Part shown: positions 697 to 63,864 of the stretch, one piece after another
Layout: every line of letters begins with the position of its first letter
Numbering within the stretch: position 1 is the first letter of the stretch
Origin: Eledone cirrhosa
Lineage: Eukaryota
Assembly: GCA_964016885.1 (NCBI GenBank)
Contig: OZ024751.1
Location: 27,528,001-27,592,000, forward strand
Direction of reading: 5' to 3'
Length of the DNA stretch: 64,000 nucleotides
Notes under the pieces: model-generated
The model's input: the letters and a program-made list of their open reading frames with translations, nothing else
Databases searched by the model: none
Told to the model about the DNA's origin: nothing
Position numbers and translations under genes: made by a program

Positions 697-2763
697 ATGA
701 GTGAAAATGTAGCTGAGATCTTGACAACATCTAGCCAGCCTGCCTCAGGCCACCCAACTTCTGGCCAGTCTGCCTCAGGCCACCCAACTACTGACCAACC
801 TGCCTCAGAAGAACTAACTACTGACCAGCCTGCCTCAGGCCACCCAACTTCTGGCCAACCTGCCTCAGGCCACCCAACTTCTGGCCAACCTGCCTCAAGC
901 CACCCAACTACTGACCAAGCTGCCTCAGAAGAACTAACTACTGACCAGCCTGCCTCAGGCCACCCAACATCTAGCCAGCCTGCCTCAGGCCACCCAACTT
1001 CTGGCCAGCCTGCCTCAGGCCACCCAACTTTTGGCCAGCCTGCCTCAGGCCACCCAACTTCTGGCCAGCCTGCCTCAGGCCACCCAACTTCTGGCCAGCC
1101 TGCCTCAGGCCACCCAACTACTGACCAGCCTGCCTCAGGCCACCCAACTTCTGGCCAGCCTGCCTCAGGCCACCCAACTTCTGGCCAGCCTGCCTCAGGC
1201 CACCCAACTTCTGGCCAGCCTGCCTCAGGCCACCCAACTTCTAGCCAGCCTGCCTCAGGCCACCCAACTTCTAGCCAGCCTGCCTCAGGCCACCCAACTT
1301 CTGGCCAGCCTGCCTCAGGCCACCCAGCATCAAATCACCCTGTTTCAAGTCAACCAGTGTCTGACCACCCTGCTTCAAACTACCCGTCAGACAATGTAAG
1401 GTCAGAACACTCAGAAATTGATGAGAGACCACATATACCAGAGTTGTTATCTGATGACAGGGATGAATATGTATGTTGAATTCAAATTTCATTTTTATTT
1501 CTATCTCTTATTCTTTGCCCATTTATTCCTGAGTGGGTTTTGGGGGCAGACTCTTTAAACACTCCTTCCAGCGGGTCCTGTTAAAAGCATCCGTCTCCAA
1601 CTGATCTGGCTGAATCCCCATCTTTATTGGGGTCTAGCCCTTGGTCGGTTTTGCCCATAAAATCTCTCCAGCGATTCTTTTCTGAGACATTCTAACCACT
1701 TGCCCCTAGTATTGGAGCTGTGATCTCTCAATTCGAAGGAGCCTCATTTCAGCCACTTGTATTCGAGATTGTATCCTTTCGGTCATTACCCAAGATTCAT
1801 GACCATAGGGTTGACATGAGTACTAAGTTGAAGATAGTGAGTTTGGCTTTTGCACCTACTTCCTTTCTTCTGATTACTAAATGCTGAAGCTGGCGCATTA
1901 CTGCATCAGCTCCTGCAATTCTTCCTCTTAATTCAGCCTCCTGCCTTCCATCACTTGTGAATACAGCCCTGAGATACTTGAACTTCTCCACTTGCTTTAG
2001 TGGAACTCCATTCACATGTAGATTGCACTGCACAGGCTTCCTTGAGAGGACGAATGTCTCCGTTTTTGCTGCACTGATTTTCATTCCAGCCATGCAGCAC
2101 TCAGCATCAAACCTATTGAGTGCACCTTCTGTCGAGTTAAGTCGTCTGCTAACTGCAGCCAACTGATTTTACACCCACTTGTCATGATACCACTTCCAAC
2201 TCGGATGTGGATGGCAATCCTGTTTATCTCTTCTCTAACTAGATTTGTCAGCATGATTGACATGTGGTATAGTGTGGTTAAGGTGATTGACATGTGGTAT
2301 AGTATAGTTAAGGTGACTGACATGTGACAGGTACCAACAAGCTAATGTGATTAAGAAGTTCACTTTACAACTACATGACTTCAAGTTTACTGCGTGGTAC
2401 CTTGGACAAATGTTAGCTACTTTAACTTCAAGTTGACATACTTTGTAACTGAAATTTAGTAGACAGCAACCAACTGTGTTACCACCTAGAAAGATTTGCT
2501 ACTTATTTTATCAATCTCCATCAAACTGCTAAGTTACAGGACATAAAGAACACCAGTTTTTTAGGTGACTTCAGGAAAAGAAATCAAGAGAAGTGGACAC
2601 ATGTACATATATGTATGTAGGCTGTTGATGATTTCATCCAACCAATGGAAGCCCTTAGCAGCATCACCTCAAATTCCATTCTCCATCAAGTTTTACTTTT
2701 CTCAAATGCATCTGATGATTTAGACGTGTTTTCATCTTGAAACCTCTAGTATTGCAGTGTTGA

Positions 2764-2811
<48 letters not shown>

Positions 2812-4212
2812 GCAGTTTGCTTCAGCAGAGTTTCCATCTACCAACTTCCACTCACAAGTAATTGATTTACTCAAGATTATAGCAGAAGATAGTTGCCAAT
2901 TCTGCCACAAAAATAAAACCAAAGCTGAGACAACATTGTTACATAACTTAACCACACAGTATAGATACCTATTAACAATCTTCCCCAGATATTTCAAAAT
3001 TTAACCATTTTAATACGATAGCATGTGAAATTTCCCCTAATTCTACATTACAAAATTGTGTGTGATATGATGTTAGCAGGGTAAACAGACATTAAATGAT
3101 GATAATGATTTATCTAAAATTTGCCTTTCATCCTTACGGGGTCGATAAAATAAAGTACCAGTAAAGCACTGGAATAATTGCTGGCCTTGTGCCAAAAGAA
3201 GAAACAATTATCATTTTATAAGTTATGCTCCAAACACCAACTTAATAATGAGCAAGTTATATTATTAAATCCCTCGAAATACTTGATTGTTTTCAAAATT
3301 ATCAGCAGTGACTTTCAGAAATATGGTATCAAAACTTAATTATTTAAATAATTTTCATTGTACTAATTGCAACTTATCCTTTTTGATAGCAATCCAGCTG
3401 AAACTGATTCTGGTTCTATGAAACAAAGCCACCACTTTTAAAAGGCTCTTAAATCAAAGTTTTCCAGTGTAATTTTATATAAGAAACATGAAATAATGTT
3501 TTTAGTTAATCACTCAAAATCCTTCATTAATTAACTTTTTGTATTTCATTATAAATCTGGTGATGTAAGGGCAGCTAATGTTGTGTTATTTGTATTATTT
3601 ATTTAAGTCCAACTCTAGTGATGTCCAAGAAATACATGTTTCCTTTGGAAGAAGACCAAATCTACCATTTATATTAATTGATTCTGTGAGTAAACCAACA
3701 TTTCTCCATAGAAACATAATTTCATTTGTTCATTTCCAACTAATGCTTTTCAGCTTTAATTAGATCAACAATTTGGAGGTAAGGGACAAGTTAATTTTAC
3801 GAACCCCAGTGCATGACTGGTATTTGATTTTATCAACCCTGGAAGGATGAAAGGATAAGTTGACCTCATTAGGATTTGAACTTAGAATGTAAAGAGCCAG
3901 AACAAATTTGTCTGACACTTTAACCACTCTGCAAAGCCACTGACCTCTTTCTTGACTTTTTTTTTCAAAAATAATGAAATAGGATTTGTATCGTGTGTCC
4001 CCTGATTTTTAGACTAGATACACCACATGTGTGCCTCATGGGGATTTGTATCGTGTGTATCTCATGGCAGTCAGCAAAAGGGACAGGTATCAGGAAGGGC
4101 ATCCAGTCATAAGACATTACCTCATAATGTCAAAGTCCACACAGCCATGCCTGCACCTATAGAAACATATTTTCTCAATTTCCCCAATGTTTCATAAATT
4201 GACCAGATGTTA

Positions 4213-4267
<55 letters not shown>

Positions 4268-7200
4268 ATATGATATATATATATATATATGTTTATATAT
4301 ATGTGTGTGTGTGTGTATGATATATATATATATATATGTGTGTGTGTGCAGAAGGTTCAGTAAATCCGAAGGAAACTGGTGAGAATACCAAGACCAACAC
4401 TCGATGTAGAGCAGAGTGTATATAATAACAAAGTGGAGGTGTTACATAGGAGATTTATTGCTCAATCCTGGTTACAAATGTTTCTCAAGCAACTGGCTCG
4501 TGACCTGGGTTGGCACCCCAGACCAGACTCCAAGTCTGCTTGATCCTCAGACCAGTGTTAACACAATAAAAATCACATAAAATCTGTGGACAAACCAGCT
4601 AGACACAAACAAGCATATAGAATGACCAATCATGGACCTAGAATTCAACAGACACATATAACTTTAATATTAGAGTTCAATAAAGCAGACATAAAAATGA
4701 TGATAATAAACTAATGTGTATATTTTTCTGCAATTCTGCCAGTCTGAAGAAAGCACTGATTCCAATGATGTCAATGATGAGGTGCAGAGAGAACCCTCTC
4801 CTGGGGGGAGTGTTATCACAGCAGGAGGAAATGATGAAAACACTTCCAACAACAACAACCACGGTCCAACTGAAGAAACTCTACCGCCTCAAGCAAACAG
4901 TACACCCACTTCAGCTACTGATAATGTCTTTCAGACCCCTAAGAGGCGCCGAATTGATTCTCCAGCAAATCCAAATCCTCTCCAAGAAAGTAATTTGGAG
5001 GAAAACGACGAGGTAAGTTGAAAGAAGTACCATATATACTTGTGTACAAGACACATTCTTGGTTCATTATTTGACTCCCATATAAGGTATTGTAGGTCCA
5101 GTCATCATCATCATCATCATTTTTACATAGGTTGGACATGTCTTTCTCAGCGCGGTATCTCTCCACACGTTGCAATCATTTGTCATCTCCTCTGTGTGTC
5201 TCTGCCCAGGTCTTTCTTGGTCTACCTCTACCATGGCAACTTCCCACTGGGATTTCCTGGCACTTCATTGTCCATACATATCACATGTCCAAACTAATGC
5301 AGTCTTCTCTCCTGCACACCACCTCAGGTACCTCTTAAACCCAGCTTCTTCCTCATCTTGTCCAAACTCTGCCTTTCTCTCACACATTGCACATCCAATG
5401 GAACATGGTTACTTCATTTCTCTCCAGTCTACACATGTCCATTGTAGTCAGCCCATGTTTCACTACCATGTTGCACCACATGTTTCACTACCATGTTGCA
5501 CCACATGTTTCACTACCATGCAGCATCACACTTTGCACACAGGCATCATACAGCCTTCCTTTTGTAAGTAGGAAGAAACCTTTTGTTGTCAAAAGTGGGA
5601 GCAATTCTCTAAACTTCTTCCATCCTCTCCTTATTCTAGCTATTATATTCTCAGTATACTCTCCTCCGCTGCTAATTAGGTCACCTAGATAGCAGACGCC
5701 ACCCACATCTATGGGTTTTTCCTGTGATGAAAAGGTTTATATCATTAGCAGTCTTCCTCTTGATTACTCCTGTGTATCTTTTACATGCAAAGTTCTCCCC
5801 TCCTGTTAGTCTACTCCTTATCCCACTACATCTCTTGTGTACCCAAGATTTACATTGTGTACATTGTATGAATTTTATGCTTACTCCTTTTGTACTTATT
5901 GATCAGGGCTACTTCCCTAAAATAATCAGGGTCCTATCTTCTTTCCTGCTCACTAGCACTTTAGTTTTGGCTTAGCTTACTCTCAGACCCTTTGATTCCA
6001 AATTCTGTTTTCACACAGGGAACTTATTTTTTAGTTCTTTTATGAATTCAACAATAAGGACCAAATCATCTGCATAGAGAAGTTCCCATGGGCAGTTGTA
6101 AACTTCTCTGTTATGGCCTGGAGGACTAAGAACTGAATCTTGATGAACTCTTACCGGTACCTTGAATTACTCACTAAACTCATTTCCTACTCTCACTTTA
6201 CTGACAGCTGCTTTGTACATAGCTTGCACTGCTCTCACAAGCCATTCTTCTACACCTAGTTTCTTTAAAGACCACCAGATAATGGATTGAGGTACTTTGT
6301 CAAAGGCCTTTTCTAGATCCAGAAAAGCTAAATATAGTGACTTATTCTTGGCTAGGAACTTCTCATGTAGTTGCCTCACTAAAAGGAGGACATCTGTAGT
6401 ACTTTTCCCACGCATGAAACCAAACTGCATCTCATCTAATTTGACTCTTTCCCTAACCATGAAAAATTTTGGAAATGCTGCCATAATATGATAGGGGACC
6501 GCGAGGCATCCGGTAAATGGTAATGGGACCGCCGAGAAAAAAGTTTGGGAACCACTGATTTAGTGGGACCTGAGTATCTGTTACACTCCTATTTTACATA
6601 CAATATTCTTGGCTCAGATAAGGTTTTGTAGGTTCTATAGATGGGTCACACCTCATTTTACAGGTCCAGTAGATAAGCTCCACCCCCAATTTACATGTCC
6701 AATAGATAAGCCACACCTCCAATTTACAGGTTTAATAGATAAGCCACACCCCAATTTACTGGTTCAATAGATAAGCCCCACCCCAATTTACATGTCCAGT
6801 AGATTAGTCACACCCCCCAATTTACATGTCCAGTAGATAAGCCACATTTGACATGATTTGATGATATTGTTTTGTTGATTCCAATTTCTTGCAGAGCTGC
6901 TCAATTTGTTTCGAGCCGTGGACAACTTCAGGGAAACATCGACCAGCTTCTCTCAAATGTGGTCACCTGTTTGGTCAAAGGTAATTGCCTGTTTAATAGA
7001 AATGAAATGAAGGTGTATATGTAATATAAAGAAGGAATGTATATAATGAATATAGGGGTGTGTATATAATAGAAATAGTGTTAGTAGTACCATAGTAATT
7101 AGAGTCATGGCTGTGTGGTTGAAAGGTTCAGTACCACTGTGTGGGACATAGAATAAGTGGCATTTACTATAGTCTTAAGTTGCTTTCTGGTAGCCAGGGA

Positions 7201-9891: not shown

Positions 9892-12800
9892 GGCCATGTT
9901 CGATATGTAGAAAAGGAGTTGGTAAAAACTCTATAGAATGTACACAATGCAGATCTTGGGTACACAAGAGGTCTAGTGGGATAGCAGGCAAACTAACAGG
10001 AAAGGAAAACTTCATATGTAGTAGATGTTCAGGGAAATTTGATAGAAGTGTCAGTGTTAGGTACATTTTTCAAATGCAGGTGGGATCTATAGAGGTGGTT
10101 GATAGCTTCCGGTACCTAGGTGATCAGATTAGCAAGGGAGGAGGATGCTCCAATGCCATAGTATCTAGAATAAGGACAGGATGGAAGAAGTTTAGGGAGC
10201 TGCTTCCTCTGTTGACAACAAAAGGTTTCTCCCTATGAATGAAAGGTCGGTTGTATGATGACTGTGTGAGATATGGGCAGCAACTATAGAAGATATGCGA
10301 AGGCTGGAGAGAAATAAAGCAAGCCTGCTCCAATGTGCGTGAGTTGAGAGTGAAACTGTATATAAGAGGAATATACTATTGTGTGCAGGAGAGAAGACTG
10401 CGTTGGTACGGCCATGTCACGTGCATGGAAAATGACAGCTGGGTGAAGAAGTGCCAAGAAATCCCGGTGGAAGGAAGACGCAGTAGAGGAAGACCACGAA
10501 AAACATGAGCGGAGGTGGCGAGAGCTGACGTTTAATGTCCACTTTCCCTGCTAGCATGGGTTAAACAGGTGTTCAGGGACTAAAGTAAGGCTACTGATCT
10601 CCCAGATAGGTCAGGGGTCAGTATCTTGCTTACATGTATCTTCTTTATTATCGATCTCTGTTTACCAGCCACTGGACACATGTGAACGTGACAGAGCTTT
10701 ACAAGAACTGGCTCAAAGTAAGCAAAGGAATGGTGAGATCAAGATGGAAATGGCTGAACTTGGCTGCAAGTATCAAATGGAATGTTCCAAACTACGCACA
10801 GAACTTCAAGAGGCCAAAAACGAAATTAAATACCTCAGGTGACTTTCTTTCATTAATTATTCTGTAGAAACTATTTCTGATTATTTTGGCATGTGGCCTG
10901 GTGCTTAGGGTGGTGGACTCAATCGGAATCATAGGCTCATGTGTTTGGTTCCTTGATTGGGGAGTGTGTTGTGTTCTTGAATAAGATGCTTCTTTTTATA
11001 TTGCTTTTTCATATTGGGGTTGGGCCCCTATCATTAAAACACTTGAAAAACCACCTATGAGATGTAACCTTGTAAGAGGCCAGCATAGGTGGGCAGGTAC
11101 ACTGGTTTTCACCTGACTTCCATTTTTGGCTCTGGGACATTATTCTACCATTCCCTGACTTCTGCTGGCTAAACTTAGTGAAGGATAGGATGCTTGAAGT
11201 GGAGATGGGCACCACCAAGTCCTTCCAAGGTTCATTGAAATGCTATGATGAAACATCTATAGTGGCACTACTGCTGCAACAATAACTTCATTCATTAAGA
11301 TGGTATTGGAGGTGTGTGGCCTAGTGGTATGGGCATTGGACTTATAATCATAATGTCATGGGTTCAATTCCTAGACTGGGTTGAGAAAAACACATTGGTC
11401 CAGTATACTATGCTGGGGAGATGTCATGTTGAGAGAGGAGTCTTGTACTCACAGTCACTTCACGCCACAGAAACCGGGATCGGTCTGATGATAACCAGCT
11501 GGAGACGGACTTTAGATCTTTTGTGATTGTTCTTGATACAGTCAAACATCTACAGTGTCACCCTAGCAACTACAGTGTCATCCTAACAACTACAGTGTCA
11601 TCCTAACAACTACAGTGTCACCCTAATAACTACAGTGTCACCCTAATTACAGTGTCACCCTAATAACTACAGTGTCACCCTAGCAACTACAGTGTCACCC
11701 TAATAACTACAGTGTCACCCTAGCAACTACAGTGTCACCCTAACAACTACAGTGTCACCCTAATAACTACAGTGTCACCCTAGCAACTACAGTGTCACCC
11801 TAATTACAGTGTCACCCTAATAACTACAGTGTCACCCTAACAACTACAGTGTCACCCTAACAACTACAGTGTCATCCTAACAACTACAGTGTCACCCTAA
11901 TAACTACAGTGTCACCCTAGCAACTACAGTGTCACCCTAATTACAGTGTCACCCTAATAACTACAGTGTCACCCTAACAACTACAGTGTCACCCTAACAA
12001 CTACAGTGTCACCCTAACAACTACAGTGTCACCCTAATAACTACAGTGTCACCCTAACAACTACAGTGTCACCCTAACAACTACAGTGTCACCCTAATAA
12101 CTACAGTGTCACCCTAATAACTACAGTGTCACCCTAACAACTACAGTGTCACCCTAACAACTACAGTGTCACCCTAACAACTACAGTGTCACCCTAACAA
12201 CTACAGTGTCATCCTAACAACTACAGTGTCACCTAACAACTACAGTGTCACCTAACAACTACAGTGTCACCCTAACAACTACAGTGTCACCCCCTAACAA
12301 CTACAGTGTCATCCTAATAACTACAGTGTCATCCTAATAACTACAGTGTCACCCTAATTACAGTGTCACCCTAGCAACTACAGTGTCACCCTAACAACTA
12401 CAGTGTCACCCTAATAACTACAGTGTCACCCTAACAACTACAGTGTCACCCTAATAACTACAGTGTCACCCTAACAACTACAGTGTCATCCTAACAACTA
12501 CAGTGTCATCCTAACAACTACAGTGTCACCCTAACAACTACAGTGTCACCCTAATAACTACAGTGTCACCCTAACAACTACAGTGTCATCCTAACAACTA
12601 CAGTGTCACCCTAATAACTACAGTGTCACCCTAATAACTACAGTGTCACCCTAACAACTACAGTGTCACCCTAATAACTACAGTGTCACCCTAACAACTA
12701 CAGTGTCACCCTAATAACTACAGTGTCACCCTAACAACTACAGTGTCACCCTAACAACTACAGTGTCATCCTAACAACTACAGTGTCACCCTAACAACTA

Positions 12801-15800
12801 CAGTGTCACCCTAATAACTACAGTGTCATCCTAACAACTACAGTGTCATCCTAACAACTACAGTGTCACCCTAATAACTACTGTGTCACCCTAGCAACTA
12901 CAGTGTCACCCTAATTACAGTGTCACCCTAACAACTACAGTGTCACCCTAATAACTACAGTGTCACCCTAACAACTACAGTGTCACCCTAATAACTACAG
13001 TGTCACCCTAACAACTACAGTGTCACCCTAACTACAGTGTCACCCTAACTACAGTGTCACCCTAACAACTACAGTGTCACCCTAACAACTACAGTGTCAC
13101 CCTAACAACTACAGTGTCACCCTAACAACTACAGTGTCATCCTAACAACTACAGTGTCATCCTAACAACTACAGTGTCACCTAACAACTACAGTGTCACC
13201 TAACAACTACAGTGTCACCCTAACAACTACAGTGTCACCTAACAACTACAGTGTCACCCTAACAACTACAGTGTCATCCTAACAACTACAGTGTCATCCT
13301 AACAACTACAGTGTCACCCTAACAACTACAGTGTCATCCTAACAACTACAGTGTCATCCTAATAACTACAGTGTCACCTAACAACTACAGTGTCACCCTA
13401 ACAACTACAGTGTCACCTAACAACTACAGTGTCATCCTAACAACTACAGTGTCACCCTAACAACTACAGTGTCATCCTAATAACTGCAGTGTCACCCTAA
13501 CAACTACAGTGTCACCCTAACAACTACAGTGTCACCCTAACAACTACAGTGTCACCCTAACAACTACAGTGTCACCTAACAACTACAGTGTCACCCTAAC
13601 AACTACAGTGTCATCCTAACAACTACAGTGTCATCCTAACAACTACAGTGTCACCTAACAACTACAGTGTCACCCTAACAACTACAGTGTCACCTAACAA
13701 CTACAGTGTCACCCTAACAACTGCAGTGTCACCCTAACAACTACAGTGTCATCCTAACAACTGCAGTGTCACCCTAATAACTACAGTGTCACCCTAACAA
13801 CTACAGTGTCACCCTAACAACTACAGTGTCACCCTAATAACTACAGTGGCACCTAACAACTACAGTGTCACCCTAACAACTACAGTGTCATCCTAACAAC
13901 TGCAGTGTCACCCTAACAACTACAGTGTCACCCTAACAACTACAGTGTCACCCTAATAACTACAGTGGCACCTAACAACTACAGTGTCATCCTAACAACT
14001 GCAGTGTCACCCTAACAACTACAGTGTCACCCTAACAACTACAGTGTCACCCTAACAACTACAGTGTCACCCTAACAACTACAGTGTCATCCTAACAACT
14101 GCAGTGGCACCTAACAACTACAGTGTCATCCTAACAACTACAGTGTCATCCTAACAACTACAGTGTCATCCTAACAACTACAGTGTCATCCTAACAACTA
14201 CAGTGTCACCCTAACAACTACAGTGTCACCCTAACTACAGTGTCACCCTAACAACTACAGTGGCACCTAACAACTACAGTGTCATCCTAACAACTACAGT
14301 GTCACCCTAACAACTACAGTGGCACCTAACAACTACAGTGTCATCCTAACAACTACAGTGTCACCTAACAACTACAGTGGCACCTAACAACTACAGTGTC
14401 ATCCTAACAACTACAGTGTCACCCTAACAACTACAGTGGCACCTAACAACTACAGTGTCATCCTAACAACTACAGTGTCACCCTAATAACTACAGTGGCA
14501 CCTAACAACTACAGTGTCACCCTAATAACTACAGTGTCACCTAACAACTACAGTGTCACCCTAACAACTACAGTGTCACCCTAACAACTACAGTGGCACC
14601 TAACAACTACAGTGTCATCCTAACAACTACAGTGTCACCCTAACAACTACAGTGTCATCCTAACAACTACAGTGTCATCCTAACAACTACAGTGTCATCC
14701 TAACAACTACAGTGTCATCCTAACAACTACAGTGTCATCCTAACAACTACAGTGTCATCCTAACAACTACAGTGTCATCCTAACAACTACAGTGTCACCC
14801 TAACAACTACAGTGTCACCTAACAACTACAGTGTCACCCTAACAACTACAGTGTCATCCTAACAACTACAGTGTCATCCTAACAACTACAGTGTCATCCT
14901 AACAACTACAGTGTCATCCTAACAACTACAGTGTCATCCTAACAACTACAGTGTCACCCTAACAACTACAGTGTCACCCTAATAACTACAGTGTCACCCT
15001 AACAACTACAGTGTCACCCTAATAACTACAGTGTCACCCTAACAACTACAGTGTCACCCTAACTACAGTGTCACCCTAACTACAGTGTCACCCTAACAAC
15101 TACAGTGTCACCCTAACAACTACAGTGTCACCCTAACAACTACAGTGTCACCCTAACAACTACAGTGTCATCCTAACAACTACAGTGTCATCCTAACAAC
15201 TACAGTGTCACCTAACAACTACAGTGTCACCTAACAACTACAGTGTCACCCTAACAACTACAGTGTCACCTAACAACTACAGTGTCACCCTAACAACTAC
15301 AGTGTCATCCTAACAACTACAGTGTCATCCTAACAACTACAGTGTCACCCTAACAACTACAGTGTCATCCTAACAACTACAGTGTCATCCTAATAACTAC
15401 AGTGTCACCTAACAACTACAGTGTCACCCTAACAACTACAGTGTCACCTAACAACTACAGTGTCATCCTAACAACTACAGTGTCACCCTAACAACTACAG
15501 TGTCATCCTAATAACTGCAGTGTCACCCTAACAACTACAGTGTCACCCTAACAACTACAGTGTCACCCTAACAACTACAGTGTCACCCTAACAACTACAG
15601 TGTCACCTAACAACTACAGTGTCACCCTAACAACTACAGTGTCATCCTAACAACTACAGTGTCATCCTAACAACTACAGTGTCACCTAACAACTACAGTG
15701 TCACCCTAACAACTACAGTGTCACCTAACAACTACAGTGTCACCCTAACAACTGCAGTGTCACCCTAACAACTACAGTGTCATCCTAACAACTGCAGTGT

Positions 15801-18800
15801 CACCCTAATAACTACAGTGTCACCCTAACAACTACAGTGTCACCCTAACAACTACAGTGTCACCCTAATAACTACAGTGGCACCTAACAACTACAGTGTC
15901 ACCCTAACAACTACAGTGTCATCCTAACAACTGCAGTGTCACCCTAACAACTACAGTGTCACCCTAACAACTACAGTGTCACCCTAATAACTACAGTGGC
16001 ACCTAACAACTACAGTGTCATCCTAACAACTGCAGTGTCACCCTAACAACTACAGTGTCACCCTAACAACTACAGTGTCACCCTAACAACTACAGTGTCA
16101 CCCTAACAACTACAGTGTCATCCTAACAACTACAGTGGCACCTAACAACTACAGTGTCATCCTAACAACTACAGTGTCATCCTAACAACTACAGTGTCAT
16201 CCTAACAACTACAGTGTCATCCTAACAACTACAGTGTCACCCTAACAACTACAGTGTCACCCTAACTACAGTGTCACCCTAACAACTACAGTGGCACCTA
16301 ACAACTACAGTGTCATCCTAACAACTACAGTGTCACCCTAACAACTACAGTGGCACCTAACAACTACAGTGTCATCCTAACAACTACAGTGTCACCTAAC
16401 AACTACAGTGGCACCTAACAACTACAGTGTCATCCTAACAACTACAGTGTCACCCTAACAACTACAGTGGCACCTAACAACTACAGTGTCATCCTAACAA
16501 CTACAGTGTCACCCTAATAACTACAGTGGCACCTAACAACTACAGTGTCACCCTAATAACTACAGTGTCACCTAACAACTACAGTGTCACCCTAACAACT
16601 ACAGTGTCACCCTAACAACTACAGTGGCACCTAACAACTACAGTGTCATCCTAACAACTACAGTGTCACCCTAACAACTACAGTGTCATCCTAACAACTA
16701 CAGTGTCATCCTAACAACTACAGTGTCATCCTAACAACTACAGTGTCATCCTAACAACTACAGTGTCATCCTAACAACTACAGTGTCATCCTAACAACTA
16801 CAGTGTCATCCTAACAACTACAGTGTCACCCTAACAACTACAGTGTCACCTAACAACTACAGTGTCACCCTAACAACTACAGTGTCATCCTAACAACTAC
16901 AGTGTCATCCTAACAACTACAGTGTCATCCTAACAACTACAGTGTCATCCTAACAACTACAGTGTCATCCTAACAACTACAGTGTCATCCTAACAACTAG
17001 AGTGTCACCCTAACAACTACAGTGTCACCTAACAACTACAGTGTCATCCTAACAACTACAGTGTCACCCTAACAACTACAGTGTCACCTAACAACTACAG
17101 TGTCACCTAACAACTACAGTGTCATCCTAACAACTACAGTGTCATCCTAACAACTACAGTGTCACCCAACAACTACAGTGTCACCTAACAACTACAGTGT
17201 CATCCTAACAACTACAGTGTCATCCTAACAACTACAGTGTCATCCTAACAACTACAGTGTCACCCTAACAACTACAGTGTCACCTAACAACTACAGTGGC
17301 ACCTAACAACTACAGTGTCATCCTAACAACTACAGTGTCATCCTAACAACTACAGTGTCACCCTAACAACTACAGTGTCACCTAACAACTACAGTGTCAT
17401 CCTAACAACTACAGTGTCACCCTAACAACTACAGTGTCACCTAACAACTACAGTGTCACCTAACAACTACAGTGTCATCCTAACAACTACAGTGTCACCT
17501 AACAACTACAGTGTCATCCTAACAACTACAGTGTCACCTAACAACTACAGTGTCACCTAACAACTACAGTGTCATCCTAACAACTACAGTGTCATCCTAA
17601 CAACTACAGTGTCATCCTAACAACTACAGTGTCACCCTAACAACTACAGTGTCACCTAACAACTACAGTGTCACCTAACAACTACAGTGTCACCCTAACA
17701 ACTACAGTGTCATCCTAACAACTACAGTGTCATCCTAACAACTACAGTGTCACCCTAACAACTACAGTGTCATCCTAACAACTACAGTGTCACCCTAACA
17801 ACTACAGTGTCACCTAACAACTACAGTGTCACCTAACAACTACAGTGTCATCCTAACAACTACAGTGTCACCCTAACAACTACAGTGTCATCCTAACAAC
17901 TACAGTGTCACCCTAACAACTACAGTGTCACCCTAACAACTACAGTGTCACCCTAACAACTACAGTGTCATCCTAACAACTACAGTGTCACCCTAACAAC
18001 TACAGTGTCACCTAACAACTACAGTGTCATCCTAACAACTACAGTGTCACCTAACAACTACAGTGTCACCTAACAACTACAGTGTCATCCTAACAACTAG
18101 TGTCATCCTAACAACTACAGTGTCACCCTAATAACTACAGTGTCACCCTAACAACTACAGTGTCATCCTAACAACTACAGTGTCACCTAACAACTACAGT
18201 GTCACCCTAACAACTGCACCACAGGAACCTGATTCGTTAAGATGGTACCTTTTCCCCACTAATACTGATATGTTTATCAAATGTAATGAATTTTATTCTG
18301 TTGTAGGAGTCGGTTACATGATAACTGCAATAGTTCCTCTACAGATGTTTCACTCTCTCAGGAAGATTCTAGAACTAAAAGTCAAGAATCTTCTGGAAAA
18401 GGACAATATAAATGTGATAAAACAATCCTGATTTGGGAGGTAAGTGATCGTTTTCTTAGGAGACTACTTGAAACTGCCTCAGGTTCCATGATAGAAAACA
18501 ACAATCACCATCCATACACATGATATGTTCATATCAGTACAGTCTTCTCTTTTGTACACTGCATCTGATTTTTGTTATACTCAGTTTTCCTATCAGTTCA
18601 TTTATGCTTCATTCATTCATTCACATTAGCATTACCCCTCCAACAAACTATTCTAGCTTCGTATCTCTCCAGTTTTACTTAACCTATATGGATTACCACA
18701 GGAATCTATCTTCATTTAAAATTACTTATCAAATTTCTTTTTCATTGTATCACTTAATCTTTAAATTTATCACACCATTTCATTGCAGGCATATACTATC

Positions 18801-21800: not shown

Positions 21801-24800
21801 TTGCCCTTCGTACTCTTCTACCGCACTGTACCAGTTTTTTGAAAATTATTAGTCTTTTATTATATATATAATGTACCAAATGCAAACTATGGGTACACTA
21901 GAGATGTAGTGGGGTCTCAGGCAGGCTAACAAAGAATGTAGGTTTTACATGTGGCCAGGGCACAGGGGCAGTAAGTAGCAACAGCTCTCAGGATACAATC
22001 ACCTTCAAATGCCCAGAGGGCTCAGTAGAAGTGGTAGATAGTTTCTGTTTCCTGGGTGACCAAATCAGTAGTGGCAGAGGGTGTTCTGAAAGCACACCTG
22101 TGAGATTGGGTTGGAGAAAATTCAGGGAGCTACTACTGCCACAAAAGGTTTTTCCCTCAAAATGAGGCAGACTGTATAATGCATGTATAAGAACAACAAT
22201 GTTGCACAGCAGTGAGACCTGGCACTGTGTGCAGAGGACCGGCGAAGATTGGAAAGTAATGAAGCCTCCATGCTCCAATGGATGTGCAATAGTAATATAT
22301 GTAAATGGCAAAGCATAAACGAACTCCTTGGATATTACATCACATGCTGTTGTTTTTTTCCAGATACGATGTCCCATTTCCTGCTTGGAGTTGTATATGG
22401 AACTCAGATGACCATAACTATTTCTTTGTTGGTATGCAGAATGGTTTTGTGTTGGAATATGATGTACGTAAGACTGATACATTTATTCATCAAATGAACA
22501 CTGAAGGAAGTCGTTCCCCGGTTGTTTCTTTACAGTACATTCCTGCTGCACCTTTTGCCCACTTCAGGTAAGATACTCATCAGCGTTTAGCATCCATTTT
22601 TCCACGCTTGCATCAATTAAACAGGTTGTCACATTATGAAACAATTCAGGTCAGGTGACCACGTCTTGCTCATATTGACCTATATTTTGGCTGGGTTTCT
22701 AGGGCTGAATGTCTTTTTGTTGTGTCACCAGCATATCCACCTTACAGGGAGTACTGGCTGCTTTTTGTCGTGTCACCAGCATGGGTGCCCCCCTCCCACT
22801 TCCCCAATGTTGATTGTTGGGTAAAGAAATTCCAAAGGAAGCTAGCTGCTGTAGAGGAAAACCAAGATAAAATGCTTGGCACTGGTGGTGAGAGGTGATC
22901 TGAAATCGCTGAAGCTGACTATGGAGCTGATGTATGGATGCTGTGTTAGGAAAGACATGTGTAATCCATGATGATGGTTGTATCCCTGCATGTCATTAGA
23001 GATGACTAAAAGGATTGGTGCCAGGAAGGGCATTCAGTTGTAAAACCTTGCTTTAGGCCTGGGTCTGCAAAAGCTCACTCCTACTCTAGCAAGGAAAGTT
23101 ACTTTAAAAGGCCTTGCTGCTGCTACATCTATGTCTAGACTACATTTAAATTAGACTTATCATCATTAGGCGAATAAGGATGAATGAAGAGTGATGGAAA
23201 TGAAAGTAGCATAACTATAGTTGGAGACCATTCTTAACACCACAGACTGTAACAGATACATTTAATTGTGGCACAATGACTGGAAAGGTCATGTAAAGAC
23301 TAAAAGTTCCTCGTGACCCTAAATTGACTCCACTTTATAGGTACAGGCTGTATTTTATCATGTCACCAACATTAGAGAGGTTGTGCTTTACATACTGTGA
23401 CCATGAGAATAAATAGAAGATATTTCTATTTGTCTGTTATGACAGAAAATGGCCTTAAGATGCTCATTGGATAGGTCTGTTAGTGGCCTACAATAGGTAT
23501 GTAGCTTGTGTAGCCCACAAGGCTAAACTTTGTATACATCTGTTGTGTCCCATGGTTTGTAATGTTGATCCTAACACTGTTTTGTTGTTTTGTTTATTTC
23601 TAGATCTGGTGGATTGTTAGTTGGTCAGTTAGATAGAATTAGTTTTTTTGAGAGAAAATCTAACAATGAATACCAAGTACATCTTCTTCCACTGGAAGGT
23701 AAGACTAAAAAAGACTGGATATTATATGGTCAGTCAACACTGGACATTATATGGACAGTCAACACTAACAAGTGTTTTAACCACATTTCATACCGTCCAA
23801 CTCAATTTGACTCTGGCTTAGCCATTTTATTAACATATTTAAATAATTTTGAAAATCATCATGAATTTTGTGAGATTTATTCAGTAATACAGCTTTCTCA
23901 TTATTATGCTGGTATTTGGAGCATAACTTAACAAAGGTTCTTACATAAAATTATAATGGAAGGTTTTTAAATATAGACAGTTTTGTATTATAAGTCCTCC
24001 TTGCACTTGCAGTACAAGCCCTCCTCCACACCTGCTATCAAAAATGCATCTGAGGCTCTCCCCTCTTCAGAGAGGTCTATTCTCTTGAGGTGGAGAAAAA
24101 ACTTTGCTGATCTCCTAAACCCAATCACATCTTGAGATGTGCACGAGGTGCATCTGAGAGTGGTGACTAATCTCTCAGAGATTGAGATTACAAGAGCAGT
24201 TAAAGAACTCAAATGTGGCAAGGCTACAGGGGAAGATGAAATCCAGCCCAAGGTGATAAAAAAACTTTAAGAGAGAAAGTATTCTCTGACTTACTCGTGT
24301 ATGCTGCATCTCTGGAAAGGCACCTCAGCAATGGCAATTGGGAGTGATAACCCTAATTTTGAAATTTGGAGGCAAGAGATTGTTCCAATTACAGAGGGAT
24401 CTGCTTGTTAAGCCTCCCCGGTAAAGTCTATGCAAAGAGATGCAGGGAGATTGTCAAGTCCAAACTAGCTGATGAACAAATACTGGAGGGAGTGTATGAG
24501 GACTCTGCCCATACGACCCTCAGGAATAAGTGAGTGAAGAAGAGTTTTGTATGGTAGAACCAGGGGGGAAAGTTTCAGGTGGTTTGCTATTAACTTCAAT
24601 AGCCATTACCGGTATTTTTAGCTGATTATGCAAAGATTTCAGAAGGGCTGGTGGGCCAGCACCTCTCGGCATCCTGACCCCACAGTGGTACCTGGCTCAA
24701 CACGATTACCTGAGGCTCGGCCTCCAAGTCTTTGAGACTGTCATGCTGTTACAGTGCTGGATGCCTTCCACACCATGTTACTCTCAAGATCATAAAGCAT

Positions 24801-36051: not shown

Positions 36052-36271
36052 TAACAACAACAACAGCAGCAATACTAACAATGCCACTACTGCCAATCAC
36101 AACACCACCACCAACAACAACATCACCAACAACAACACCACCACCACTAACAACAACACCACCACCACTAACAACAACACCACCACCAACAGCAATACCA
36201 CCACCAACAGCATCACCAACAACAACACCACCACCACCAACAATAACAACAACACCACCACCAACAGCAAT

Positions 36272-36302
<31 letters not shown>

Positions 36303-36493
36303 CTAACAACACCACCACCAACAGCAATACCACCACCAACAACAACACCACCACCAACAACACCACCACCACCGACAACACCAACACCACCAACAACACC
36401 AACACCACCAACAACACCACCACCAACAACAACACCATCACCACCAGCAATAACACCACCACCACCAACAACAACACCACCACCAACAGCAAT

Positions 36494-36524
<31 letters not shown>

Positions 36525-37805
36525 CTAACAACACCACCACCAACAGCAATACCACCACCAACAACAACACCACCACCAACAACACCACCACCACCGACAA
36601 CACCAACACCACCAACAACACCAACACCACCAACAACACCACCACCACCGACAACACCAACACCACCAACAACAACACCACCACCAACAACACCACCACC
36701 ACCGACAACACCAACACCACCAACAACACCAACAACACCACCACCAACAACAACACCACCAGCAATAACACCACCACCACCAACAACAACACCACCACCA
36801 GCAATAACACCACCACCACCAACAACAACACCACCACCAACAATAACACCATCACCACCAACAACAACACCACCACCACCACCACCAACATCACCACCAC
36901 GGGCTACCAACACCACCACCACCAACAACACCACCACCACCACCAATAACACCACCACCACCAACAATAACACCACCACCAACAACAACACCACCACCAA
37001 CAACACCACCACCACCACCAATAACACCACCACCACCAACAACAACACCATCACCAACAACACCATCACCACCACCAATAACACCACCACCACCAACAAC
37101 AACACCACCACCAACAACACCATCACCACCACCAATAACACCACCACCACCAACAACAACACCACCACCAACAACAACACCATCACCACCACCAACAACA
37201 ACACCACCACCAACAACAACACCACCACCACCAACAACAACACCATCACCACCACCAACAACACCACCACCACCACCAACAACAACACCACCACCACCAA
37301 CAACAACACCATCACCACCACCAACAACACCACCACCACCACCAACAACAACACCATCACCACCACCAACAACAACACCACCACCAACAACAACACCACC
37401 ACCACCAACAACAACACCATCACCACCACCAACAACACCACCACCACCACCAACAACAACACCACCACCACCAACAACAACACCATCACCACCACCAACA
37501 ACACCACCACCACCACCAACAACAACACCACCACCAACAACAACACCATCACCACCACCAACAACAACACCACCACCAACAACAACACCACCACCACCAA
37601 CAACAACACCATCACCACCACCAACAACACCACCACCACCACCACTAACAACACCACCACCACCAACATTAACACCAACACCAACAACACCACCACCACC
37701 AACAACACCACCACCACCAACATTAACACCACCACCACCACCAACATCACCACCACGGGCTACCAACAATAACACCACGGGCCACCAACAATAACAATAA
37801 CAACA
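36052..37805. repeat. Compound (CCA/ACA/CAA)n trinucleotide microsatellite
   Basis: 1.75 kb consisting almost entirely of A and C; produces the long PT/TN and V/G ORFs in the track. Confidence 0.95.

Positions 37806-39176: not shown

Positions 39177-63864
<24,688 letters not shown>

Follow-up and report, generated by a model that had tools for sequence, protein, structure and literature searches.

The window, by which we mean the whole 64-kb stretch of Eledone cirrhosa DNA analysed here, carries the RFWD3 gene on its plus strand, as indicated by RING exons at 6895 and 9663 and by a match to the WD40_RFWD3 domain (PF23419) at 22305–22568 (E = 4.8e-26). An earlier note on this DNA had placed a hammerhead motif in an intron of RFWD3, on the antisense strand, and this orientation bears it out. 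In the first coding exon seen for RFWD3 (697–1470, plus strand), a 30-bp repeat that encodes a 10-residue unit occurs about 20 times; a 20-bp unit, repeated 338 times, makes up a 6.7-kb array at 11545–18215 within the gene span; and a 1.65-kb (CAC/CAA) array is found at 36103–37756. The features considered in the following are:

4742–5012, plus strand: RFWD3 exon flanking the element, which lies antisense in the intron before it
4347–4660, minus strand: 3' end (pLTR/3'UTR) left by 5' truncation of a family-A Penelope-like element (PLE) from the Hydra clade; defined by copy alignment
4211–4346: insertion target of the element, a (TA)n/(CA)n microsatellite that adjoins its 3' end
4468–4555, minus strand: motif of a type I hammerhead, with cleavage predicted to fall between 4473 and 4472
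4555–4551 (CUGGU), 4550–4544 (CUGAGGA) and 4543–4537 (UCAAGCA), minus strand: 5' arm of the hammerhead, read from the sequence
4536–4492, minus strand: 45-nt stem II insert, followed by UGCUUGA at 4491–4485
4484–4480 (GAAAC), 4475–4473 (GUA) and 4472–4468 (ACCAG), minus strand: 3' arm of the hammerhead, read from the sequence
4485–4543, minus strand: rod-like stem II of 59 nt, from pairing prediction and family alignment
4474–4481, minus strand: stem III (ACAUUUGU), short and almost a palindrome, with pairing predicted from one ribozyme to another
4454–4459, minus strand: AATAAA, located 6–14 nt 3' of the cut site in all eight families
52155–52418, plus strand: endonuclease C-terminal fragment of another Hydra-clade family, the query that led to the other families

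Re-reading of the minus strand returned the hammerhead letters and positions of the earlier note, with an intact core: CUGANGA, GAAA, A15.1–U16.1 and H17 are all present in the window copy, together with three stems, of which stem I is open. A hammerhead descriptor matched once in the 64-kb window, loose matches in dinucleotide shuffles amounting to 0.025 per 64 kb and an equally strong match occurring in none of 40 such shuffles, and the 88-nt fragment folds modestly better than shuffled sequences (z = -1.38). The Rfam comparison proposed in the note did not turn out in its favour, as no hammerhead model was among the 14 matches of the window at E ≤ 10. At the level of sequence, the type I hammerhead motif, a candidate ribozyme, is confirmed as real. 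The term well formed applies to its core, but U10.1–A11.1 replaces the conserved G–C pair; G10.1–C11.1 is highly conserved in type I hammerheads, without being absolute. The 7 bp of stem II described as perfect do pair in the window copy, but they are partly private to it, position 4540 being G (in a G·U or G–C pair) and not A in 28 of 30 aligned family-A copies. Stem III is indeed short and of the dimer type, and can be drawn with 3 bp and a 2-nt loop (ACA-UU-UGU).

The 3.0-Gb genome was searched with 4345–4700, which gave 787 first-look candidates; the best 40 were scored and 30 loci, including the window copy, were fetched, the others matching at 83–92%. Paralogs in the genome keep the core and the large stem II, and between families the helices show compensatory changes, in agreement with what the earlier note had expected. 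Family-A copies all terminate alike on the 3' side, where (TA)n or (CA)n comes next, have variable 5' ends, and are often accompanied by an inverted partial copy. The window copy has its 5' edge at about 4659–4672 and ends in ...TTCTGCA; both the AATAAA (4459–4454, minus strand) and the (CA/TA)n microsatellite (repeat tract at 4211–4339) previously noticed 3' of the motif were found. That this copy is a recent one was not upheld, since it lies 6.5% from the family-A column majority, within a range of 3.9–11.7% over the 30 copies. Its private changes inside stem II are located at 4540, 4510, 4504 and 4492. In contigs from one sample, a comparison bearing on variants and multiplicity only, the family letter is the main letter at 4540, 4504 and 4492, and summed depth reaches about 10,000, compared with about 7 in the exon. 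Divergence within family A is 2.8–2.9% in the core, about 8% in the flanks and 9.8% in stem II; because the copies were picked by similarity, the low core value is given no weight.

Longer family-A copies run 5' into a broken ORF, on the strand of the ribozyme and 5' of it, with the RT C-terminus, thumb, CxCX5C linker, GIY-YIG, CxLC and CxH, the domain motifs of this family having been read by eye from broken frames. The ribozyme lies 3' of same-strand RT-thumb, CxCX5C, GIY-YIG, CxLC and CxH remnants in L008, L050 and L054, and an RT followed by a C-terminal GIY-YIG, with CxCX5C, with CxxC and CxH around E/N, and lacking CCHH, was seen in L044, L046, L050, L051 and L053. Hallmarks of the Hydra clade are RT-thumb, CxCX5C, GIY-YIG, CxLC/CxxC and CxH, and a (TA)n target (Craig 2021, PMC8557442). 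This domain set is present also in the D/E copies L145 and L148, and the copies furthermore display (TA)n insertion, 5' truncation, and tandem and inverted pLTR copies. L148, from the sister family E, is near full length, with clear N-terminal RWR and DKT motifs, and has 17 database homologs (32–49% identity), mostly with Hydra motifs. The corresponding RWK/DKT places are decayed in the family-A copies L334 and L335; the latter includes the start codon of family A, with a short remnant of the 3' terminus in front of it. Pfam gave no match for eight PLE fragments. In a 170-residue RT tree covering our own loci and database homologs with Hydra motifs, families A, J and E group at only 89/79, family J carrying an F-type ribozyme. 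With a long linker insertion and a long 3'UTR, about 4.5 kb separate the two pLTR ribozymes of L331, compared with less than 3 kb for published Hydra elements in the available text (PMC8557442).

The domain order and motifs rule out an assignment to Neptune or Naiad. The 'half core' of Naiad_Ovul (PMC8557442, File S5, inspected by eye) was also discarded, its GAAAC being placed about 24 nt before CUGAUGA in a permuted arrangement lacking such a rod. As between the two homes suggested by the earlier note, that of a type I hammerhead of a PLE was borne out, family copies adjoining an RT-endonuclease ORF, and that of a retrozyme was abandoned because family copies sit 3' of this ORF. Non-LTR retrozymes of animals share a PLE-derived type I hammerhead, but, as far as the available text describes them, they are tandem non-coding units (bioRxiv 10.64898/2026.07.22.740005), whereas the window holds one long-stem match, in one truncated end from a family that bears an ORF. 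We hold with high confidence to the element-family membership, the upstream ORF, the (TA)n insertion, one ribozyme per pLTR in full-length copies, and the compensatory changes in the rod.

The protein search with the other Hydra fragment of the window gave 34,042 candidates, of which the best 150 were scored, and further families B, C, D and E were found, with equal spacing and different sequence. At least eight sequence families in the genome share the long stem II. The pattern CTGANGAN{50,75}GAAACNNNNGTHAC has 2,351 genome matches compared with 57 for the reversed control. A short-spacer pattern has 202 compared with 34, a count biased by the ending of the pattern, from which the number of short hammerheads cannot fairly be judged; some of these matches are derivatives with internal deletions. 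A metagenome pattern scan gave 15 matches, none forming the stems. In all, 107 distinct motifs were extracted, and 94 of them, falling into eight families, were aligned on sequence anchors with pairing ignored; the 13 left out comprise five without a family and eight with a damaged anchor or a shifted length. The 10.1–11.1 pair is U–A in A, G–C or G·U in B, C, F and G, and a mismatch in D, E and H. Family E cores often read CUGA-NN-GA, with an extra nucleotide, or CCGA (upstream pLTRs of L282–L321; L148, 5831–5925).

With regard to stem II, the parts of the rod in the window copy are:

4543–4536/4485–4492, minus strand: helix P2a
4532–4530/4496–4494, minus strand: helix P2b, UGG/CCA
4529–4528/4497, minus strand: AG/G internal loop
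4527–4526/4499–4498, minus strand: UC/GA, followed by a bulge at 4500
4525–4517/4501–4509, minus strand: P2d, the distal helix

In this copy, the rod helices have pairing probabilities of 0.45–1.0, and the AGACU/AGUCU branch proposed in the earlier note has a probability of 0.0, which rules out a branched stem II. The unusual size of the stem stands, being kept in paralogs, but as modelled it forms a rod without branches, interrupted by a conserved internal loop. From the core outward, the families share a plan of up to 9 bp, a 2-nt 5' bulge, 3 bp, the AG/G loop and UC/GA, followed by a 1-nt 3' bulge, the distal helix and a loop, and the stem II region measures 59–61 nt. The letters of the AGUC/GAG loop are near-invariant among the 94 copies (AG in 86, UC in 80, GA in 75 and G in 88). 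This loop may resemble the bulged-G (loop E) motif.

When each family is represented by its majority letters, 97 of the 112 variable cells of stem II are paired, the mean with swapped families being 77.8; this is the best of the 40,320 family orders, the other 40,319 all being lower. With insert helices only, 67 of 72 cells pair, and 12 of the 40,320 orders are as high. Across families, P2b.1 is U–A, C–G or U·G, and P2b.2 is G–C or A–U. In a MAFFT alignment of 40 of the 107 motifs, 86.1% of cells are paired compared with 74.0% after shuffling (0 of 500 as high), falling to 26–41% when the alignment is slid, and the covariation score is 0.417 compared with 0.209 for shuffles (0 of 500 as high). 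Two of the five covariation measures are not above shuffles, namely double-change pairs (73 of 500) and further pair types (195 of 500), and RNAalifold gave no consensus pairs for the same 40 sequences. Copies of B, C, G and H folded alone are mostly without P2b (median probability 0.00–0.05). As the families are related, the compensatory changes represent few events, not eight. The missing RNAalifold consensus, the internally deleted derivatives and the long loop 2 variants of Selaginella PLE-X1 (PMC8557442, File S2) could be taken to mean that the long stem II goes back to an ancestral insertion which is neutral and which loop 2 tolerates, the basal pairs alone being of importance. We regard this as highly improbable in view of the double-sided changes in P2b and distal P2a and of the invariant loop letters, in families whose medoids are about 41–68% alike among the values listed.

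Stem III is a palindrome or near-palindrome which, as modelled, cannot close as a monomer hairpin, its monomer pairing probability being 0.02 or less and its self-duplex energy -2.9 kcal/mol; its 15.3–16.3 pair covaries (A–U in 21 of 40 and G–C in 14 of 40). Among 40 copies of family D/E that include the ORF start, 33 have their 5'UTR joined to a directly repeated copy of the 3' end, and in L331 each end bears a long-stem ribozyme, so that one transcript can hold two ribozymes. AATAAA is absent from some copies. Only in family A is it paired into the distal part of stem I, and the masking of AAUAAA was thus rejected as a general trait (0.85 in family A, 0.0–0.52 in the other seven).

The 33 pLTR 5' boundaries of family D/E were sought as fossils of cleavage. 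Nineteen lie upstream of the whole ribozyme, 7 inside it, 7 downstream, and none at the cut or within 3 nt of it; the genome therefore holds no cleavage fossil, and the scatter of the boundaries implies templates that are uncleaved or re-ligated, as with the Anolis element. Such boundaries would also suit a hammerhead that is catalytically marginal, the rod serving retrotransposition itself through template recognition, RT initiation about 125–140 nt downstream, or translation of the ORF after the upstream pLTR. The extra nucleotide frequent in family E cores points the same way, as do ribozyme mutants of the Anolis PLE, which still insert in vitro, the mutations having had no effect on insertion in the available account (PMC11167929). 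This explanation nevertheless seems to us quite unlikely: the core, which was in part a selection criterion, and the covarying palindromic stem III are retained in all families, and re-ligated circles would likewise erase the boundary signal.

The explanation that we favour, and consider somewhat more probable than its competitors taken together, is that the window holds the truncated 3' end of a Hydra-clade PLE whose type I hammerhead core would bear an unbranched stem II rod of 60 nt kept across families, and that the AGUC/GAG loop of this rod is predicted to dock the element's own protein, aiding a slow, dimer-based self-cleavage. In an active element, one transcript would carry two hammerheads, which probably pair through the palindromic stem III and cut weakly. 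That the RT-endonuclease protein, and not another stretch of RNA, is what contacts the loop we judge to be an even call; the suggestion arises because an invariant internal loop within covarying helices looks like a binding site. Two PLE systems provide the analogy, as far as the available texts go: the minimal hammerheads of Schistosoma PLEs cleave weakly and only as dimers (PMC4209133), and the Anolis PLE hammerhead cleaves only with its own protein (PMC11167929). In a bolder form, which is tentative and on balance doubtful, the 60-nt domain would have been grafted on the hammerhead in a PLE subclade, AGUC/GAG being the binding site of a telomerase-related RT and self-cleavage being switched by protein.

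The constancy of the arms could also speak for a rod acting through RNA only. Core-to-P2b distances are 9 nt on the 3' arm in the 94 aligned copies, this same 9 nt being the alignment anchor, and 11–12 nt on the 5' arm in 92 of 94, suggesting a fixed geometry. The rod would then be an auxiliary domain, its bulge and internal loop contacting stem I, either in its internal loop or in its distal helix, and this contact would replace the usual loop 1–loop 2 contact and speed up protein-free cleavage. We hold this to be unlikely, since the sequence and length of stem I and the distance to AATAAA (6–14 nt) vary between families while the loop motif is fixed, and some 12 bp separate the motif from the core, more than the 4 bp of the usual hammerhead stem II. 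Family-A stem I does continue beyond an internal loop, and natural hammerheads depend on contacts between stems I and II (PMC3088659, available text), both of which speak for the RNA contact.

Hammerheads of PLEs, including Hydra-1_Obim of octopus Hydra elements, have already been published (PMC8557442). Those of the Hydra clade resemble the present ones in being of type I, near the 3' end, with a C-terminal GIY-YIG, a (TA)n target and a palindromic stem III of 3–4 bp with a tiny loop. In the available text, however, their stem II has 3–7 bp and a loop of 3–10 nt, whereas it spans 59–61 nt with a conserved internal loop here, and the Hydra-1_oBim ribozyme (File S2) is unlike our families in sequence. 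The minimal hammerheads that Cervera & de la Pena described in PLEs (2014, PMC4209133) likewise have a helix I of 4–5 bp, an enlarged basal helix II of 7–8 bp, a dimer-type helix III and thousands of dispersed truncated copies, but an extended rod is not described in the available text, and family A is without their G10.1–C11.1 pair and extra nucleotide after A9. Closer in size are PLE-X1_sMoe and PLE-X1_sTam, PLE hammerheads with a long loop 2 (about 30–35 nt) flagged as non-canonical; these are from endonuclease-less plant elements, and neither AGUC/GAG nor cross-family covariation is given in the available material (PMC8557442, File S2). Anolis Poseidon PAc, also with a pLTR hammerhead, offers a model for protein-assisted cleavage and an uncleaved template, but it belongs to a different PLE clade, its ribozyme overlaps the ORF start, and the available text shows it without a long stem II (PMC11167929). 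The 'long helix II' of viral type I hammerheads amounts to 6–8 bp (PMC13725137, in part), and the available parts of Perreault 2011 and of a 2019 review mention no such long stem II domain. A search of the text of openly accessible papers returned no description of the long rod, and this architecture of stem II appears to be new.

PLE hammerheads cleave poorly by themselves, and for one of them a requirement for its own protein has been established. A conserved, covarying domain with an invariant loop would provide a mutational handle on protein–RNA recognition and assisted cleavage in PLEs and, if the proposed docking is true, a natural protein-regulated hammerhead, with thousands of copies missed by standard descriptors and Rfam. 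Searches limited to a short stem II find too few natural hammerheads, in this one genome more than 2,000 too few. With regard to the host gene, the location of the copy in RFWD3 looks incidental. As it is antisense to the gene, the host pre-mRNA carries the non-catalytic strand, and this single, ORF-less copy is very probably inert and unable to cut the RFWD3 pre-mRNA; it is probably without consequence.

Other elements were seen in the course of the analysis. In the window, a decayed short hammerhead-like motif with a CUGAUGU core lies at 52884–52936 (plus strand; weak model match, E = 0.0008), and a GIY-YIG-like frame of a different PLE type (TYIGETAQ...) extends over 51486–51863 (plus strand; no Pfam match). 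Another Hydra family has a pLTR-ORF-pLTR layout, at 1497–1576 and 5950–6029 of L332 (minus strand) and at 1424–1503 and 5723–5802 of L333 (plus strand), and the stem II region of its hammerhead, 47 nt long, is of another kind: its base can pair in two alternative ways and, judged by eye, a pseudoknot is possible. Finally, at 578–4036 of L153 (minus strand, reverse-strand coordinates) an unrelated non-LTR element has an endonuclease-RT frame that stays open for 1,153 residues, and pieces related to it recur in several loci.
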